A stretch of DNA of 64,000 bases from Ostreococcus lucimarinus (Eukaryota). Shown one piece after another: positions 21,022 to 38,386 of the stretch. Under the pieces are notes generated by a model. The model was given only the letters and a program-made list of their open reading frames with translations. It ran no database searches and was not told where the DNA came from. Position numbers and translations under genes: made by a program. The stretch lies in NCBI GenBank assembly GCA_000092065.1, contig CP000601.1, one strand, 5' to 3'. Within the stretch, counting starts at the first letter, position 1. Each line of letters opens with the position of its first letter.

Positions 21022-22396
21022 GTGGAGAGTTTGCTTAAGCCCGACGCGGGAAGAGATGATATATTCCACGCCGCGGGTCAAGGGTTAGCTGGTGTCGGAG
21101 GCGACGTCGTAGCGATTGGTTGGTGGGACTCACGCGGGGTAGAAGGCACGTCCCCGCAACTTGAATTGCAGGCGCTCAACGACGGCGCCAGGGCACAACT
21201 CATAGGGGTGGTGCTCTTGGCGCTTAAAGAAGGGCTCGAGAACATAGAAGAGAGCAACGGAAGCTTGCGTGAACTCATTCAAACAGTGGCTAGGGTCTCC
21301 GCGAATGATTGGATGAATTCGATGGCGCTTGACATCGGCGCCAAGGAGCGGTGCGCTCGGGTGGTTCGCGTGGCCGGAGACGTGGCCGATGAAAAAATTT
21401 GGCAGAACGGTACGTATGATCTCGCTTTCGTCTTCGACCGAGCTGATCGCGTTTTTCACAGGAGAAATACTTGAAGGAAGTAAGATGGCTTTGTATGCCG
21501 GAGTGATGATGTATTTGGCCAAGGTACGTCTAACTTTCGCTGAGCTTCACAAATATTTATTTAATTATTCTGAATTATTTCAATCATCGCAGAACTCCAA
21601 TCGAACGGACAATATTTCCGAAAGCGTTCAAGTCGTTGAGAAATCGACGAAAATTAACACTCAAGACGTCGAACCGGTGCTGGAATTCTTCAATTCTCCT
21701 ATGGCTTCGGTGTGCGTTTCGGTTTTGCAGGACGTGGTATTAAATATTGCCGACTCCGTGGCGTGTGCTTACGTGACGTGTGCGCGTGAAAGCGGGCTAC
21801 AAGCGCCTGTAAATGGTGGAGTCGCACGTACGGAGGACACAGGAGCGGTCGTGCGCATTCCACCGTTCAGAGACGCGTTGAGCGTTCGCTTGAAGAGCAC
21901 ACGTTCGTTGGAAAAATTTCGAAATGAAACATCATTGCGCACGTGGCTTGCACGCAATTATTACGACGTGGTCGCGATGTACGAAGATTGGCATAAATTG
22001 TGGGGCATGAATGCAAACGGCGAGGTACGTATCTCCGCGCGACGGCGCGTTTGAATTAATTTTTTAATTTGTCGCTGAAATTAATTATTTTTCACACAGC
22101 TCGTGACGAGGAAAATTCACGTTTGTCGCCAGCCAGAGCTCGCAAAGGTGAAGGGATTTCGTTTAGCTGTTTCTATGATAATAGAACTCGCTGATGTGAG
22201 CCTTCCCTTGTTCAGAAGCGCACTGAACAACTGCAGCCGGGTGGCTTCTTGGTTACTGGTGACATTAATTGGTGCGTTTGAAATTAATTATTTTGTGCAT
22301 CGACTTACTCTCTCTAACGCAGGCCGTTCGCTTGGATTGGTGTATCGTGGAATCAAAGAAAGCATGGACCCTCAAAACAGAGTGAAATTCACGTAG
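21022..22396 (+). CDS. Multi-exon gene of unknown function (at least 5 exons; small AT-rich introns)
   Basis: Consecutive plus-strand ORFs (21022-21409, about 21462-21525, about 21591-22025, about 22099-22272, about 22323-22396) are separated by short GTACGT/GTGCGT...CAG intervals rich in A/T. Exons are lower-GC than neighbouring genes. No family recognised. Confidence 0.45.
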
Positions 22397-22514
22397 TAGA
22401 CGACAGGCAGCACGGGGCGATCGCTTCTACGCTGGGGAAAAAATTAATAATAAATGACTCCCGTCATATGTCACTACAGCACTGTAAAATCTAATGAGGA
22501 GAAAACGTCTCATG

Positions 22515-24161
22515 CTAATCGTCTTCCTCGCTATCCTCTTCCTCGTCGTCTTCCTCGTCCTCGTCTTCGTCGTTATCGTCGGTTTCGTAATCTACTTCAT
22601 CGTCCTCCTCGTCTTCCTCCTCGTCTGCGCTGGCTGACTTTTTCGGCGCAGGTTCGGAGTCTTCATCCTCACCTGGGTTCACGAAGCCGTCTTCCAACAC
22701 CCAGCCGTGCTGTAGGAGTAACTCATACACACGAATAGCCTTGAGTGGGTCTACTTTGAACATATTCCGAACGTGATTTCTGTTGAGCGGCTTTTCGGAC
22801 TTGAGACCCTCTCGCATCAACTCCACCTTCATCGAGAGATACTGCACAGGCAATAAGCGACAGCTCCTGCACAACTCCTTTTCGTCGTCGTTCAAAAGGT
22901 CTACGCCTGGAAGATCGGCGAGATCAAGTGACAAGTACATTCGACGGCGAGGACCTAAGCTCGACGTACGAGGCGTCGGGATCACGGATACCGTCTTGTC
23001 TTCGTCGTTCATGCGAGTCAACTGCTCATTGATTTGTGTGGCATCTCGCACGATGAACTTGTTCGCTCTGGCTATGTTCTTGCTAGTTGGATGCTCGATC
23101 GCGTGTAGACGAGCGAACTCCGTCTCACGACGACGCTTCTCCAAATCGTAATCCTCGCCCTCTGCGATGGTATGAATACCATTGCGTCTGTACTCTTTCA
23201 GTTCGGTGATGCGGGTTCGGATTCGGTGCTCCGCGGCGAGACCCTCGAGCAAGACGTCGTACTCGGTACTCGTGAGAAAGCGTGCAAATATACGCATGGT
23301 GCCGTGTAAGTCGCGCTCGTATTGTGAACGCTTCTTTTCCACGTTTTGTTGCTTTTTCACGTTCAGCAGATTGCGTTCGAGAATGAATTGTTTTCTTCTC
23401 GCTCGTTCTTGAAGCCGGCTGTTGTAGATTTCAATCATTCGCAGCTTCATCTGGACGTCTTCTTCGGTGTCGTTTTCGCGAAATTCCATCTCCGCCAGGG
23501 GAAGTTCGGCATCCATGTCGTATTCGGGATCGAACTCATTGCGCTTGATGTTGTAACCTGTGAGTTCCTGCACGTTGCCCTCCGTCTTCACTGCGTTCGG
23601 GTTAGCAAGCGATTCGAGAAGCTTCTCCTCCTCCTCCACATCCTTATTTTCGTTCGCCTTTTGCTCCGCCTCCGCTTTGAGCTCGTCTGATGTCATACGC
23701 GCGACGCCTTTTCCTAAAATCTTCGACATATCCGGTAACGGCGCGCAAGGAGACTTGACGTAGACTTCAAAATAGTGCGCGTGACACTGCGCGCGCGTCT
23801 TCGTCCCGACGTGTTCGCTCACCTCGGTCCAGTTCCCCAACCCGAACATCTCCACTGCCTCCAGCAATAACAACTCTTCGTCAGCCCCCCAATCTCGCGT
23901 GAACAGCGGAAACGACATGTTGTCGATGACGTGATACTGATGATACGCCTTGTGCGGGTGCGGCTCCACGCCGACCGCGAAGCACTCCGTGCACAGATCC
24001 ACGTTTGCGCACTCCGCGCACCGTACGCGCACCACGTTCGAGATGTCCTTTTGGCAATAGTTACAGTTAAACAGTGCGCACGACTCCCCGTTCCCACTCA
24101 GCTTCGTCATCGCGTTTTCCGTCGCCACCCGTCGCCGTTTCGGCACGAGCGCGCTCGCCAT
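22515..24161 (-). CDS. ADA2: Transcriptional adaptor ADA2 (ZZ zinc finger + SANT + SWIRM)
   Basis: ZZ finger FNCNYCQKDISNVVRVRCAECANVDLCTECFAVGVEPHPHKAYHQYHV, SANT WGADEELLLLEAVEMFGLGNWTEVSEHVGTKTRAQCHAHY, and C-terminal SWIRM-like LLPVQYLSMKVELMRE...IRVYELLLQHGWV. Confidence 0.85.
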   Translation of the reverse strand: MASALVPKRRRVATENAMTKLSGNGESCALFNCNYCQKDISNVVRVRCAECANVDLCTECFAVGVEPHPHKAYHQYHVIDNMSFPLFTRDWGADEELLLLEAVEMFGLGNWTEVSEHVGTKTRAQCHAHYFEVYVKSPCAPLPDMSKILGKGVARMTSDELKAEAEQKANENKDVEEEEKLLESLANPNAVKTEGNVQELTGYNIKRNEFDPEYDMDAELPLAEMEFRENDTEEDVQMKLRMIEIYNSRLQERARRKQFILERNLLNVKKQQNVEKKRSQYERDLHGTMRIFARFLTSTEYDVLLEGLAAEHRIRTRITELKEYRRNGIHTIAEGEDYDLEKRRRETEFARLHAIEHPTSKNIARANKFIVRDATQINEQLTRMNDEDKTVSVIPTPRTSSLGPRRRMYLSLDLADLPGVDLLNDDEKELCRSCRLLPVQYLSMKVELMREGLKSEKPLNRNHVRNMFKVDPLKAIRVYELLLQHGWVLEDGFVNPGEDEDSEPAPKKSASADEEEDEEDDEVDYETDDNDEDEDEEDDEEEDSEEDD

Positions 24162-31632: not shown

Positions 31633-33540
31633 CTACACTTGAGGTCGCGTTTGAACGATGTAGAGCTGCCCATCTTCAGATATCGCGCCCTCAATGTCTT
31701 GAGGAGACCCACAAAGTGTCTCAATCTCTAGTGCAACCTTGGAGATGGTCGCTAAAAGCTTTTGTCGCTTGGTTTCGTCCGTAATGAGGCTGTCGGTGGA
31801 GTAGTCGACGTTTTTCAACGTTGCCTCCTCCATGGTGATGCTATCGTACAAGCCCGCACCGGCGAACCCTTCCAGGTCTTCGCCGTTACTATCGGATCGG
31901 AAAATAAGTGAATCTTGCTCCATGAAAAGTCCTTTTGACTTCGAAGGGAACCCGACGACGGTCGGATTATCCAAATTGCTCTTGGATGTCTTGAATGACA
32001 ATGCTCGACCAGAAAAGTTACCGACGAGCGCTTCGCCCAGACCACACACAAGCTCACCGTAAATTTCGCTCTTGTCGTTGTTTTGTGGATTCACTGTGTG
32101 CAGTACGAATGCGTATCGCGCACGAACGACGGGCTGACAAAGCACAGCCATGGACAAATCGGCGTGATTCAGCCCTGCCTTTTTGCAACTCAAAACGGCT
32201 CGCTCGTTGTACTTGCTTGCCCATACGCCAAGAATCGTCTTCCATGCCTTTTGACCTTGAGCGCTCGTCACGAGATCTCCCGGCCAACCGAGTGATTCGG
32301 CTTCGAAGGCGACTTTCAAACTTTTCGACAGGTCGGCCGTCGGTTTTAAAGTGGCGATACATGCCTTGACTTCCGCAATGAGTGCTTTGAAGCCAACGCC
32401 GTCTGTGGAGTCGTACGCTTCAAGTTGTTTGACTAACTCTGCAATTTGTCTCTTTGCGCCTGCATTCTCAGGGACATCAAGAACTGCATCGAACGTACCA
32501 AAAGGCATCGCAACGGACGGCGGTAACTTTATGAGGTTTGAGACTCGACCGCGAAGGAGTTGCAAGTTTCGAGATTTGCCGCCGACAAGCTCTGGGGTAA
32601 ACTCTGATGACGTGGCGACAAATTTTCCTTGAAACGGACGTTTGATGATCGATATGTCACTCGAAACGGAATCGCTCGACGATGTTGCTATGACCTCCGC
32701 GTCGGTACCGATGATGCCGTCGACAACATCGAATTGCAAATCGTCGCCCTGCGCAGACGGCTTGAGTTGCACGGATTTCCCGGTCATGGCTTTCATCTGT
32801 TCTAGAACATTCACGTCAAACAAAGTAGCGAAAAGAACCTTTTCGTTACGGGCGCGAACGGCGCAGTGAGACAGCACATCTGGCATATCAGGAGTAACGA
32901 TCGCGACCACGCCAACCGGAATGTCCTCTTCGCCACCAACGCGGTCGGCAATAATGACAGTCGGTTGAGAATACTTGACATTTTGCACATCGGCGAGGGA
33001 TGCGACCGAAACAATCACGCCACTACACTCGGCGTTACTGACGATTTGCCAGCTGCCCATGTTCGCAACATTACGAATAACTGGGTCGAGAACTCTGAGC
33101 ATTTGAGAAAGTGGCGCCGCTGCAGTTCCACGGATGATTTCTTCCGAGAACAGGTCGAGCACGTGTCCATCCACACCGAGCTTGTTTCCCATGCTCTGTG
33201 CCGTCGGCTGAAGTGCGTCAATATAGCGCTGAGAAATTTCGCCAAGCGAGTTTTGCAGTCGATCGCACACCGCTTTTGCCTGCAAAGCCCAATCTCCTTG
33301 GCGTCTCGCTGCTTCAAGCACATTTTGCCACTCTTTCAGGCAAATGCGCAACTCGTGGTTGCCGCTTGCAGACATGCAAAGATTCTCGAGGACGAGGCTC
33401 ATGATTCTCAAAACTTCGTAAGGAGCTCGAGTAGGCAAAGATTCAAGAGATCCTTCGATGACCGAACGCGCCGCACCTTCTAACGCAAGGTTGCGCAGAC
33501 CTTCGCAACCTTCGCGACCTTCGCCGAAACGCTCGAGCAC
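31633..33540 (-). CDS. Alpha-glucan water dikinase (GWD/R1 family) catalytic half: phosphohistidine + nucleotide-binding domains only
   Basis: GVVAIVTPDMPDVLSHCAVRARNEKVLFATLFD (GWD phospho-His region) and C-terminal RSDSNGEDLEGFAGAGLYDSITMEEA...GSPQDIEGAISEDGQLYIVQTRPQV match the GWD C-terminus. No CBM45/starch-binding N-terminal region present before the next gene. Confidence 0.8.
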   Translation of the reverse strand: MLERFGEGREGCEGLRNLALEGAARSVIEGSLESLPTRAPYEVLRIMSLVLENLCMSASGNHELRICLKEWQNVLEAARRQGDWALQAKAVCDRLQNSLGEISQRYIDALQPTAQSMGNKLGVDGHVLDLFSEEIIRGTAAAPLSQMLRVLDPVIRNVANMGSWQIVSNAECSGVIVSVASLADVQNVKYSQPTVIIADRVGGEEDIPVGVVAIVTPDMPDVLSHCAVRARNEKVLFATLFDVNVLEQMKAMTGKSVQLKPSAQGDDLQFDVVDGIIGTDAEVIATSSSDSVSSDISIIKRPFQGKFVATSSEFTPELVGGKSRNLQLLRGRVSNLIKLPPSVAMPFGTFDAVLDVPENAGAKRQIAELVKQLEAYDSTDGVGFKALIAEVKACIATLKPTADLSKSLKVAFEAESLGWPGDLVTSAQGQKAWKTILGVWASKYNERAVLSCKKAGLNHADLSMAVLCQPVVRARYAFVLHTVNPQNNDKSEIYGELVCGLGEALVGNFSGRALSFKTSKSNLDNPTVVGFPSKSKGLFMEQDSLIFRSDSNGEDLEGFAGAGLYDSITMEEATLKNVDYSTDSLITDETKRQKLLATISKVALEIETLCGSPQDIEGAISEDGQLYIVQTRPQV

Positions 33541-33709
33541 TTGTTGCTCATGCGCCGAACCGAGCGGGAGGAAATTTCAGCGCGCGCGCGCGCGCGTAGT
33601 GACATTTTCAGCGAAACAGAATTCAACTCAAACTTCATCGACAGTCTCGTCAACTCTGGCGTTCTCTAGTGATGATAGGTATTAGCATTGCAATGCAACT
33701 CTCGACGCT

Positions 33710-34336
33710 TCATTCTGATTCCGAATCGTCTTCTTCCTCGTCCTCGTCTTCGTCTTCTTCCTCTGAACTCTCTTCCTCGTCTTCGTCCTCGTCTTCCTCT
33801 TCCTCCTCTTCATCATCCTCGTCTTCTTCCTCCTCTTCGTCGTCGTCGTCGTCGTCGTCATCTTCCTCTTCGTCCTCCTCGGACATTTCTTCGTCGTCTT
33901 CCCCTTCGTCCTCTTCCTCCTCGTCCCCGGCCTCGCCAGAGATTAACTTTTCCAAATTCTTCATCTCCGCCTCCAAGTACTCCTTACGCTTCAGCTTCTT
34001 CGTCTGTTGCGCATCCATGCGAGTGCCCTCGCTTCGCTTTCGCTCCAAGTCTTCAATCTGCCGCAGCTTCTTCGCGAGCGCCCTGTACCTGACTTCCAAC
34101 GCCCCGTATTTCACCCCACCTTCCCGTCGCATCGCTTGGTCGTTCGACGCTCGCGCGCTGTTCCCAGACATTTTCAACGTGTCTCGCGCCGCCTTCTCAG
34201 CCTTGCGTTTCTGCGCGTACGTGATTCCCGGCTTTTTCGCGCTCTCCAACTTGGCGATTTGTTTGCGCGCCTTCGCGTTGTTCGGCACCGCCTCGCGCTT
34301 CGTGCGCGCCTTGTTCGTGCGATTTTGCGACCCCAT
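33710..34336 (-). CDS. Small basic/coiled-coil protein with long poly-acidic (D/E) C-terminal tail (hypothetical)
   Basis: ORF MGSQNRTNKARTKRE...KKLRQIEDLERKRSEG...KNLEKLISGEAGDEEEED... ending in about 70 residues of D/E encoded by GAA/GAG/GAC repeats. No family recognised. Confidence 0.4.
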   Translation of the reverse strand: MGSQNRTNKARTKREAVPNNAKARKQIAKLESAKKPGITYAQKRKAEKAARDTLKMSGNSARASNDQAMRREGGVKYGALEVRYRALAKKLRQIEDLERKRSEGTRMDAQQTKKLKRKEYLEAEMKNLEKLISGEAGDEEEEDEGEDDEEMSEEDEEEDDDDDDDDEEEEEDEDDEEEEEEDEDEDEEESSEEEDEDEDEEEDDSESE

Positions 34337-35141: not shown

Positions 35142-36386
35142 GTGACGCGCGGGAGATATTTCGAGCGGGACGCGATCGTCATGACATCGCTTCGTTGCGT
35201 CGCGCGCGACGCCGCGTTCGCGCGATCGACGCGCGTGACGCGTCGATCGAGGCGCGCGGGAACGGTGCGCGCGATGTCGGACGGCATGGACGCGTTCATG
35301 CCGCCGCACCGCGCGAATCAATCGTCATCGTCAACGACATCGTCTTCGACGGCGACGGCGACGATGACGAGCGGAAGCGAAGACCTGGATCCCGTCGTCG
35401 CGCGATCTCGCGAGGTGCTCGAGATGGCCACGGTCGGGGACTTGCTGCGCGTCACCGCGGAAGCGGCGGATGGGAGCGGACGCGATCGCGCGGATGAAGA
35501 CGAGACGCGAGACGCGCTGCGGTGGTTCGTCGTGAAGCGAGTGGGGATGAGCACGGGTGGACGACAGCTCGTCGAGGGTGAGTTAGAGGGGAAGAAGGCG
35601 CAGATATTGGATCAGGGCGGGGCGAATCAGGCGCGGATTGGGATCTCGGGAGCGTTGCTGGACGAGCGAACGCCGCTGACGAGGCTGAAAAACGTGCGAG
35701 ACGCGGACAAGTTTAAACGCGCGATTAAGTCGTACGAGCGACGGGTCGAACGGGAAAGCGATGCTTTAACGCTGGTTTCGAGCGTGGATAAGGCGCTGAC
35801 GTTGAATGGGTTAGAACAAGCGGTGAAGAAGAACCCGCGCTTTTGGACGGAGGGCGACGGCGCGCACTCGAGGCGAGTCATCAAGGACCCCACGGAGAGC
35901 GCGACGAAGATGACGGGGGAACTCTTGGCGCTGAAACACGGTCACCGAGATGTGGTGTTGATGCAAATCGTGTGCGACTGGACGGATGCGCTCGAAGATA
36001 GCGTTCGCGCCCCGTTCGCAGCGGCGACGCTTGAGGACATGTTGACGCAGGATGCGTCTATTTCAATGAGACTTTCAGAAGCGAGGTATCAAGTGGGAGA
36101 GGATAAAGATGGTAACCCCGAGTTCTCCAACGGCATCACAGCGGTAATTTATCGCGAGACCGCCAAGGAAACCGCGAACGTGCTCGTCTCCATGGGCGTT
36201 CAGGCGACGCGAAACATCGCAGGAGCGTTTCAGCAAGCCTTGGTCGGCGTCGCGCTCGGCTACACCGATGAAAATATCGCGCACCACATTCGCCGACTTC
36301 ACAACGAAGACAAGTTGACGGATGAAGATATATTTGCTTTGATTATCACCGCGAGGGATGAAAAGGAAGCACTGAACGCAAAGTAG
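35142..36386 (+). CDS. Hypothetical protein with transit-peptide-like leader (no family recognised)
   Basis: 414-codon ORF with coding GC3 usage; the later part (LVSSVDKALTLNGLEQAVKKNPRFWTEGDGAHSRRVIKDPTE..., VLMQIVCDWTDALEDSVRAPFAAATLEDMLT) looks globular. Start uncertain (ATG 35142/35181/35274). Confidence 0.4.
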   Translation: MTRGRYFERDAIVMTSLRCVARDAAFARSTRVTRRSRRAGTVRAMSDGMDAFMPPHRANQSSSSTTSSSTATATMTSGSEDLDPVVARSREVLEMATVGDLLRVTAEAADGSGRDRADEDETRDALRWFVVKRVGMSTGGRQLVEGELEGKKAQILDQGGANQARIGISGALLDERTPLTRLKNVRDADKFKRAIKSYERRVERESDALTLVSSVDKALTLNGLEQAVKKNPRFWTEGDGAHSRRVIKDPTESATKMTGELLALKHGHRDVVLMQIVCDWTDALEDSVRAPFAAATLEDMLTQDASISMRLSEARYQVGEDKDGNPEFSNGITAVIYRETAKETANVLVSMGVQATRNIAGAFQQALVGVALGYTDENIAHHIRRLHNEDKLTDEDIFALIITARDEKEALNAK

Positions 36387-37387: not shown

Positions 37388-38386
37388 ATGGCGCGCGCGA
37401 AAAAGCGCGCGCGGACGATCGCGCGCGCGGCGCTCGTCGTCTCGACGGCGCTCGCGATCGAGGGCGCGCGCGCGACGACGTTCACCGCGGACGGCCGCTC
37501 GTGCAAATGGCCGCTGGAGCTCGCGGAGGACGTCTTCGTGAACGAGTGCGTGCCCTACGGACGAGACGGGGCGCTGTGGTGCGTGGCGGAGGAGGACGGA
37601 AAATGGGGCGTGTGCGCGGACTTGGATTTCGACGCGAGCGCGCGCGGGAAGGTTTCGATGGAGGCCGCGGCGCGGGCGGCGACGACGCTGGCGCGCGAGG
37701 AAGAGCTAACGTACGAAGCGAGGCGACAGGCGATGGAAGTGTTGGAATCAACGTCGACGCTGATGTTGAAGGCGTTGGCGCGCGAAAGCATCGAAATCGA
37801 GGGTAAGATCGTAGAGAATCCTGTCGTTGAATTTCTAGCCAAACGTCAGAGAGAACGACCCGACAACTTCAACGCCGTGAACGACCCGACAACTTCAACG
37901 CCGGCGCCGGCGTCGACGACTTCCCCACCTTTACAACGGCCGCCGCCTTCGCCTCCGCCGCCTTCGCCACCGCCACTTTCGCCACCGCCACCGAATCAAC
38001 CGCGGTGCGTCGCGAGAACGGATATTCGATGGGAGAGCCCGCAAGCAGACGGATCTTCAGAGTTTGGCATGGACATTTACATCGTGCTCGCATCGGGTGA
38101 AAGCATCAGCGGCGGGTGGAAGATTTTGTTCAAGTTTGCGCGCGATGGTGTTGTGTTATACTCAAGTAGCGCGTACGGTGCGGACGCGCGCACGATGTAC
38201 GCGCCGGAGGACGGTCGCGTCTTCGAGTTGCGCGATCGCGGATACGACGCGTACATCGCGTTGTACTCCACGAAGCGGATCGGATTCAATGTGCGCACGC
38301 GCTCGGCGCAATCCTTACGCTTGTCGACTCTCGCAGTGAACGGTGAGGATTGCGAGATTGTATCCGAGTCTTCGATTCGCGCGTGA
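37388..38386 (+). CDS. Secreted modular protein: signal peptide + FN2-like Cys domain + Pro-rich (SPPPP) linker + CBM2-like carbohydrate-binding domain
   Basis: Signal peptide MARAKKRARTIARAALVVSTALAIEGA. FN2-like pattern CKWPLE...CVPYGRDGALWCVAEEDGKWGVC. Linker PPLQRPPPSPPPPSPPPLSPPPP. C-terminal domain C..IRW...GGWKILFKF...IGFNV...LAVNGEDC resembling bacterial CBM2 (W..GF / GWtltFtF / fGF / ftLNG..C). Confidence 0.5.
   Translation: MARAKKRARTIARAALVVSTALAIEGARATTFTADGRSCKWPLELAEDVFVNECVPYGRDGALWCVAEEDGKWGVCADLDFDASARGKVSMEAAARAATTLAREEELTYEARRQAMEVLESTSTLMLKALARESIEIEGKIVENPVVEFLAKRQRERPDNFNAVNDPTTSTPAPASTTSPPLQRPPPSPPPPSPPPLSPPPPNQPRCVARTDIRWESPQADGSSEFGMDIYIVLASGESISGGWKILFKFARDGVVLYSSSAYGADARTMYAPEDGRVFELRDRGYDAYIALYSTKRIGFNVRTRSAQSLRLSTLAVNGEDCEIVSESSIRA

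Follow-up and report, generated by a model that had tools for sequence, protein, structure and literature searches.

A putatively secreted Ostreococcus protein pairing a shortened FN2-like module with a divergent CBM2a-type domain

Within a 64,000-nucleotide stretch of Ostreococcus lucimarinus DNA (assembly GCA_000092065.1, contig CP000601.1; hereafter the window), which has about 60% GC and is densely packed with intron-poor eukaryotic genes, positions 37388..38386 of the plus strand hold a complete, intron-less open reading frame (ORF) that runs from an ATG start through 332 codons to a stop. An earlier note on this DNA had proposed that its product combines a fibronectin type II (FN2)-like cysteine module, an extensin-like hinge and a domain resembling carbohydrate-binding module (CBM) family 2, and both the ORF and all motifs quoted there are present. 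From the N terminus onward, the protein comprises a putative signal peptide, a four-cysteine FN2-like module, a helical region of about 75 residues, a linker rich in Ser and Pro and, lastly, a C-terminal domain bracketed by cysteines; it contains no catalytic or membrane-anchoring element. As described below, the N-terminal module is truly FN2-like, though shortened, and is paired with a divergent CBM2a-type module at the other end.

Marine metagenomes contain the identical protein (P0001), and together with marine genomes they yielded about 30 homologues with 42 to 86% identity. An alignment of these (A1) retains six cysteines and 38 invariant positions, most of them in the C-terminal domain. 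Relative to the 86%-identical orthologue, the ratio of nonsynonymous to synonymous substitution rates (dN/dS) is 0.26 for the whole protein, 0.14 for the C-terminal domain and 0.19 for the N-terminal Cys module, with the linker showing the highest value in the mature protein (0.35). The gene is thus real and under purifying selection, with constraint strongest on the two terminal modules; homologue conservation and dN/dS rule out a pseudogene or spurious ORF. The clear signal peptide read by the earlier note (residues 1 to 29; 37388..37474, plus strand) is borne out by direct reading of the N terminus, MARAKKRARTIARAALVVSTALAIEGARA followed by TT, which is first basic, then hydrophobic (core AALVVSTALAI), and ends in an AxA-type cleavage motif (ARA/TT). 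The same succession of basic, hydrophobic and small-x-small residues is common to all homologues in A1.

The FN2-like module covers residues 30 to 78 (37475..37621, plus strand), where CKWPLELAEDVFVNECVPYGRDGALWCVAEEDGKWGVC carries the four cysteines C39, C54, C65 and C76, alongside W41, W64 and W73. A phmmer search of PDB sequences matched MMP-2 in its three FN2 modules (summed E 6.6e-7), followed by SEL1L, MMP-9 and fibronectin, always through residues ~31 to 80, and a profile of eight non-redundant modules from the family matched the isolated first FN2 module of MMP-2 (1ks0) at E 1.5e-4. In the HMMER alignments, the four cysteines as well as the motifs W64-C65 and W73-G74-x-C76 line up with FN2-1, -2 and -3 of MMP-2. 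A predicted two-domain model of the N-terminal part matches the FN2 module of factor XII with a root mean square deviation (rmsd) of 1.7 Å over 45 of 52 residues, MMP-2, fibronectin and PLA2R are also among its fold matches, and the module adopts the three-dimensional FN2 fold in this model. The FN2 claim of the earlier note therefore stands as to cysteine register and fold, but the isolated module scores 15.2 to 15.5 bits against Pfam fn2 (PF00040), its sole match and below the gathering threshold of 22.2 bits, and the loop forming the pocket is shortened. For the O. tauri orthologue, the corresponding scores are 22.3 bits for the isolated module and 16.5 bits for the full-length protein. A 55-residue FN2 profile run against a large protein collection retrieved one fragment only and was uninformative.

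Animal FN2 modules, such as those of MMP-2 and MMP-9, fibronectin, factor XII, SEL1L and IGF2R, differ from the algal one in several respects. The algal module is present as a single N-terminal copy that stays below the Pfam threshold, its loop between the first and second cysteines is variable or lost, and a gap between the third and fourth cysteines eliminates the aromatic-bearing TTxxYD segment, including positions that are aromatic in MMP-2. W41, F50, W64 and W73 are kept.

The C-terminal domain (residues 206 to 325; 38003..38362, plus strand) is bracketed by C207 and C322, which form the predicted Cys207-Cys322 pair, and contains the motifs GGWKILFKF, RIGFNV and LAVNGEDC. An AlphaFold 2 model of it (predicted local distance difference test score 90.3, predicted TM-score 0.82) has the CBM2 beta-sandwich fold; its best fold matches are CBM2a modules, with an rmsd of 1.7 Å, and chitinase and GH20 CBMs come next. 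Structure prediction hence agrees with what the earlier note had anticipated at both ends of the protein. By hhalign, the family aligned with four CBM2s from the PDB at E 1.1e-4 over 94 columns. In a joint alignment (A6), the invariant C207 and C322 fall on C8 and C107 of the Cellulomonas fimi xylanase Cex, and the three binding-face tryptophans of Cex coincide with aromatic residues of the algal domain: the W17 column holds the invariant W215, the W54 column Y263, likewise invariant in the family, and the W72 column Y286, which is Trp in O. tauri. For the latter two columns, hhalign gives the same result. The core, with the GW motif (W244), F300 and the (I/F)GFN strand, is conserved as well.

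By sequence score, the domain is far less conspicuous. Full-length searches with the 332-residue protein gave nothing meaningful in Pfam or NCBIfam; fn2 and CBM_2 were the sole recurring Pfam matches of their respective segments and surfaced, below threshold, only when segments were scanned separately. Against CBM_2 (PF00553; gathering threshold 24 bits), the window domain reached 14 bits (E 0.065), and 7 of 10 family members were matched, at best with E 0.0034. CBM49, which is related to CBM2, never came up as a Pfam match whereas CBM_2 did, and we rejected it as the better assignment. Fold, cysteine pair and aromatic triad thus uphold the CBM2 part of the earlier proposal, while the Pfam threshold is passed only by way of a distant syntenic orthologue, P0086 (L007:50-1012). 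This protein, whose N terminus is cut by the contig end, carries a tandem pair of CBM2-type domains, each bracketed by cysteines. Of these, the second belongs to the derived Mamiellales type; the first passes Pfam CBM_2 with 34.8 bits (E 2.2e-8) and aligns with the family profile from Cys to Cys (hhalign, 94% probability, E 1.1e-7). Because a Pfam-valid CBM_2 domain in a syntenic orthologue is linked to the family in this manner, CBM2 homology is recovered transitively.

Searching 1.84 billion protein representatives with a profile of the C-terminal domain gave just 14 proteins at E<=1e-3; several of these are repeat-driven false positives, and the remainder all belong to the family. Pfam shows P0085, P0090 and P0091 to be bacterial beta-gamma-crystallin or inhibitor-I36 repeat proteins and P0089 to be an FN3-repeat protein, and we discarded all four as relatives. 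Such false positives score between E 1e-14 and 4e-4, summed over 4 to 8 weak repeats resembling YGxxGGxLYNLxDxGFDD.

Compared with the bacterial CBM2a modules of C. fimi Cex/Xyn10A (1exg) and C. cellulovorans EngD (3ndy_E), the algal domain is only 17 to 19% identical and has Tyr in place of two of the three Trp residues. It also carries a 7-residue algal-specific insertion after W215 and longer loops, with 116 residues between the terminal cysteines versus ~100 in canonical CBM2, and many invariant charged residues surround its face. Whereas the bacterial modules belong to glycanases, the algal one has no attached catalytic domain and a eukaryotic host.

Between the two modules lie a middle region and a linker. 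The middle region (residues 79 to 155; 37622..37852, plus strand), predicted to form three to four helices and a beta-hairpin, has neither a Pfam nor a specific structural match and is missing from one sub-clade in A1 (P0027-P0030 and P0032); it is a lineage-specific spacer or domain. The Thr/Ser/Pro-rich linker that follows (residues 156 to 205; 37853..38002, plus strand, by direct reading) is a low-complexity stretch that includes SPPPPSPPPLSPPPP and ends in RPPPSPPPPSPPPLSPPPPNQP, and both its length and its sequence differ among homologues. Bacterial CBM2 enzymes just as typically have Pro/Thr linkers. The hinge had been likened to extensins, and SPPPPSPPPLSPPPP does contain three Ser-Pro3-4 units within one 15-residue stretch. 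SPPP motifs are a signature of hydroxyproline (Hyp) arabinosylation in Hyp-rich glycoproteins (HRGPs) of the green lineage, and prasinophytes are reported to have orthologues of the GT77 enzymes RRA and XEG113 but not the GT75 mutase (PMC3797821). However, the exact string SPPPSPPP, quoted as an extensin criterion (PMC3797821), is not present, the linker is short and there is no extensin body. Judged from its composition, the Pro-rich stretch is a short hinge or linker.

How much of this was already on record? The O. tauri orthologue (XP_003081008.1 / CAL55177.1 / Q012K3), of equal length, 52% identical to the window protein and with the same architecture, publicly bears the name "Fibronectin, type II, collagen-binding", so that the FN2 assignment itself is not new. 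That name covers the FN2 part only, and we found no CBM2 annotation or experimental study of this orthologue. Literature searches for the protein, its accessions, and "collagen-binding" or "fibronectin type II" together with Ostreococcus turned up no paper mentioning it. The other homologues are labeled "hypothetical protein" and have no precomputed Pfam domains, and the CBM2a-type module is apparently unannotated in the database entries examined. Many members of the P0029, P0002, P0008 and P0030 clusters are fragments of 99 to 105 residues despite contigs of up to 540 kb, a sign, it seems, that the gene is often cut short or split by gene callers, perhaps at the low-complexity Pro-rich linker. 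This may explain why O. tauri is the only species with a named orthologue in reference proteomes.

Taking these features together, we consider it somewhat probable that the protein is a soluble, secreted, non-catalytic modular component of the matrix or cell surface that acts as an anchor or cross-linker, its CBM2-like domain engaging a beta-glycan and its FN2-like module a second partner. Secretion, ligands and bridging role are what we infer from the modules. After cleavage of the signal peptide, the protein would be exported to the algal cell surface or extracellular matrix, with a small FN2-like module (two disulfides) and a CBM2a-type beta-sandwich (one disulfide) at opposite ends. The helical region and the rigid proline-rich spacer, which is probably hydroxylated and glycosylated, would hold the two apart. 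Through the face formed by W215, Y263 and Y286, the CBM2-like domain would most likely bind an ordered beta-glycan surface that may be cellulose-, mannan- or chitin-like. Animal FN2 modules bind collagen-like polyproline II (PPII) peptides, and to our knowledge algae have no collagen. The second partner, bound most likely by the FN2-like module, would probably be a protein and, by analogy with animal FN2 on collagen or gelatin, may be a Hyp-rich glycoprotein in PPII conformation. As for the glycan, one can only speculate about candidate ligands in Mamiellales, for instance the product of a CslA/C-like synthase; the one CslA/C-like gene present in each of Ostreococcus and Micromonas, "CslK", has been put forward as a mannan synthase gene (PMC3091534; PMC3797821). 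Ostreococcus has been described as lacking a discernible wall (PMC3355577), and two reviews question whether Ostreococcus and Micromonas are truly naked (PMC3355577; PMC3797821).

A number of observations weigh against a wall-bridging role or against the module assignments on which it builds. The window protein stays under the Pfam thresholds for both fn2 and CBM_2. The C-terminal profile retrieved no CBM2 from PDB sequences, where its hits were noise (an intron protein and REV1, with E>0.2), nor did it pick up any bacterial CBM2 in the 1.84 billion representatives at E<=1e-3. When the two-domain model of the N-terminal part was compared with the PDB by Foldseek, no match came out at E<0.9. 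The 4-residue deletion in the loop between the third and fourth cysteines, evident as alignment gaps, affects a loop that bears aromatics in animal FN2s, and in P0007/P0011/P0014-type sequences the loop between the first two cysteines is gone (C------DARGC) with all four cysteines kept. We know of no cellulose or chitin from Ostreococcus, and a search for expression or localization data found none. Finally, the motifs RWESPQxDGSxE and LRDRGYD near the aromatics contain many charged residues that never vary (R214, D221, E225, D283, R284 and D287), which are atypical for a type-A cellulose-binding face and, as far as sequence can tell, could mean a charged or protein ligand.

This last point leads to the main rival explanation, namely that the CBM2 fold has been re-purposed. 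Its ligand would then be either a charged polymer, for example surface glycans that are acidic or sulfated, or a protein, for example a receptor on a gamete or partner cell, and the algal protein would be an adhesion or recognition factor instead of a wall lectin. The most conserved motifs around the putative face are those with the invariant Arg, Asp and Glu, the algal-specific insertion adjoins W215, the family has diverged very far from canonical CBM2, and the reported lack of a discernible wall (PMC3355577) would fit as well. Yet the three aromatic positions stay aromatic across the family and in P0086, the fold match to CBM2a is close (rmsd 1.7 Å), and P0086 retains a Pfam-valid CBM_2 copy. 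We regard such re-purposing as rather unlikely, though it is the alternative to be taken most seriously. Less plausible still, in our estimation, is that the N-terminal module is a convergent small disulfide-rich knot and its FN2 label, including the O. tauri name, an over-annotation; the missed thresholds and altered loops just described contrast here with the cysteine register, the MMP-2 matches and the predicted fold.

The remaining alternative, that the gene or its CBM2 part was recently acquired from bacteria by horizontal gene transfer (HGT), bears on the origin of the protein, for which the earlier note had left open HGT or deep conservation. CBM2 is predominantly bacterial, and the best structural matches are bacterial modules. 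Still, the locus speaks for vertical inheritance. The gene is flanked by an RPA-interacting protein gene (PF14768; 36447..37358, minus strand) and a histone deacetylase gene (PF00850; 38462..39661, minus strand), and the order RPA_interact_C, gene, Hist_deacetyl is kept on contigs whose homologues are 86%, ~50% and ~45% identical; a Hist_deacetyl gene also follows the distant P0086. At third codon positions, the ORF has a GC content (GC3) of 0.74, compared with 0.55 to 0.84 (median ~0.72) in neighboring genes, and so gives none of the compositional HGT signal for which the earlier note had suggested looking. No bacterial protein was recovered at E<=1e-3 with the domain profile, and a scan of viral contigs (IMG/VR) showed no relatives, so this is not a prasinovirus gene. 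Conserved gene order and unremarkable GC3 leave recent HGT unsupported, and we consider it very improbable. The gene is an old, vertically inherited, single-copy component of Mamiellales, into whose stem an ancient transfer may conceivably have brought it.

Several features of the surroundings are recorded here for completeness. The histone deacetylase gene beside P0086 is split into pieces, which may mean that introns occur in the source alga. Farther upstream than the RPA-interacting gene, an ORF at 35142..36386 (plus strand; 401 to 414 residues) has no Pfam match. An unannotated gene of ~329 to 404 residues, also without Pfam match, occupies the same syntenic position on all contigs examined (L001-L006), and the ORF is a conserved Mamiellales gene. 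Local GC troughs of 0.51 to 0.52 lie at 22001-24000 and 32001-34000 (window ~0.60), and GC3 in the window is lowest, at 0.55, for the ORF at 31633..33402 (minus strand).

For the anchor or cross-linker reading that we favor, the closest parallels are the non-catalytic CBM lectins found in the cyst and spore walls of protists, which the algal protein may resemble in function. The Acanthamoeba "Luke" cyst-wall lectins (CBM49/CBM2-like; PMC11423589) and the cellulose-binding wall proteins of Dictyostelium are secreted and non-catalytic, as the algal protein is predicted to be, and share with its predicted structure disulfide-closed jelly-rolls, a linear aromatic triad and low-complexity spacers (Ser-rich in Luke). 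Mutation of the aromatic triad abolishes cellulose binding by Luke lectins (PMC11423589). These structural wall lectins have two to three CBM copies, no FN2 and a demonstrated cellulose ligand, whereas the algal protein has one CBM (two in P0086) plus an FN2-like module and comes from an organism without a known wall.

FN2 and CBM2 are each well-known kinds of module, and the FN2 annotation pre-exists; what appears to be new is the CBM2 assignment, the combination of FN2 with CBM2, and a Mamiellales-restricted divergent CBM2a subfamily that sequence annotation has missed. FN2 is usually regarded as an animal-specific family, to which the protein adds a well-supported non-metazoan FN2-like module. 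One could go further and imagine that Mamiellales make an ordered beta-1,4-glycan, such as a CslA/C-like product or a cyst or zygote wall, and that the protein is a lectin coupling this glycan to PPII-type, Hyp-rich glycoproteins. We think this improbable, but if true, Metazoa would be younger than both the FN2 module and its recognition of PPII helices, which are those of collagen in animals and of HRGPs in algae. More immediately, a single-copy, syntenic and constrained gene in picoeukaryotes that rank among the most abundant in the sea offers a handle on whether Ostreococcus and Micromonas are "naked", and recombinantly produced CBM could be used to probe for a surface ligand. The protein offers a hint of an extracellular matrix in algae supposed to be naked, and its interest would rise considerably if it does mark a polysaccharide matrix in such picoalgae.
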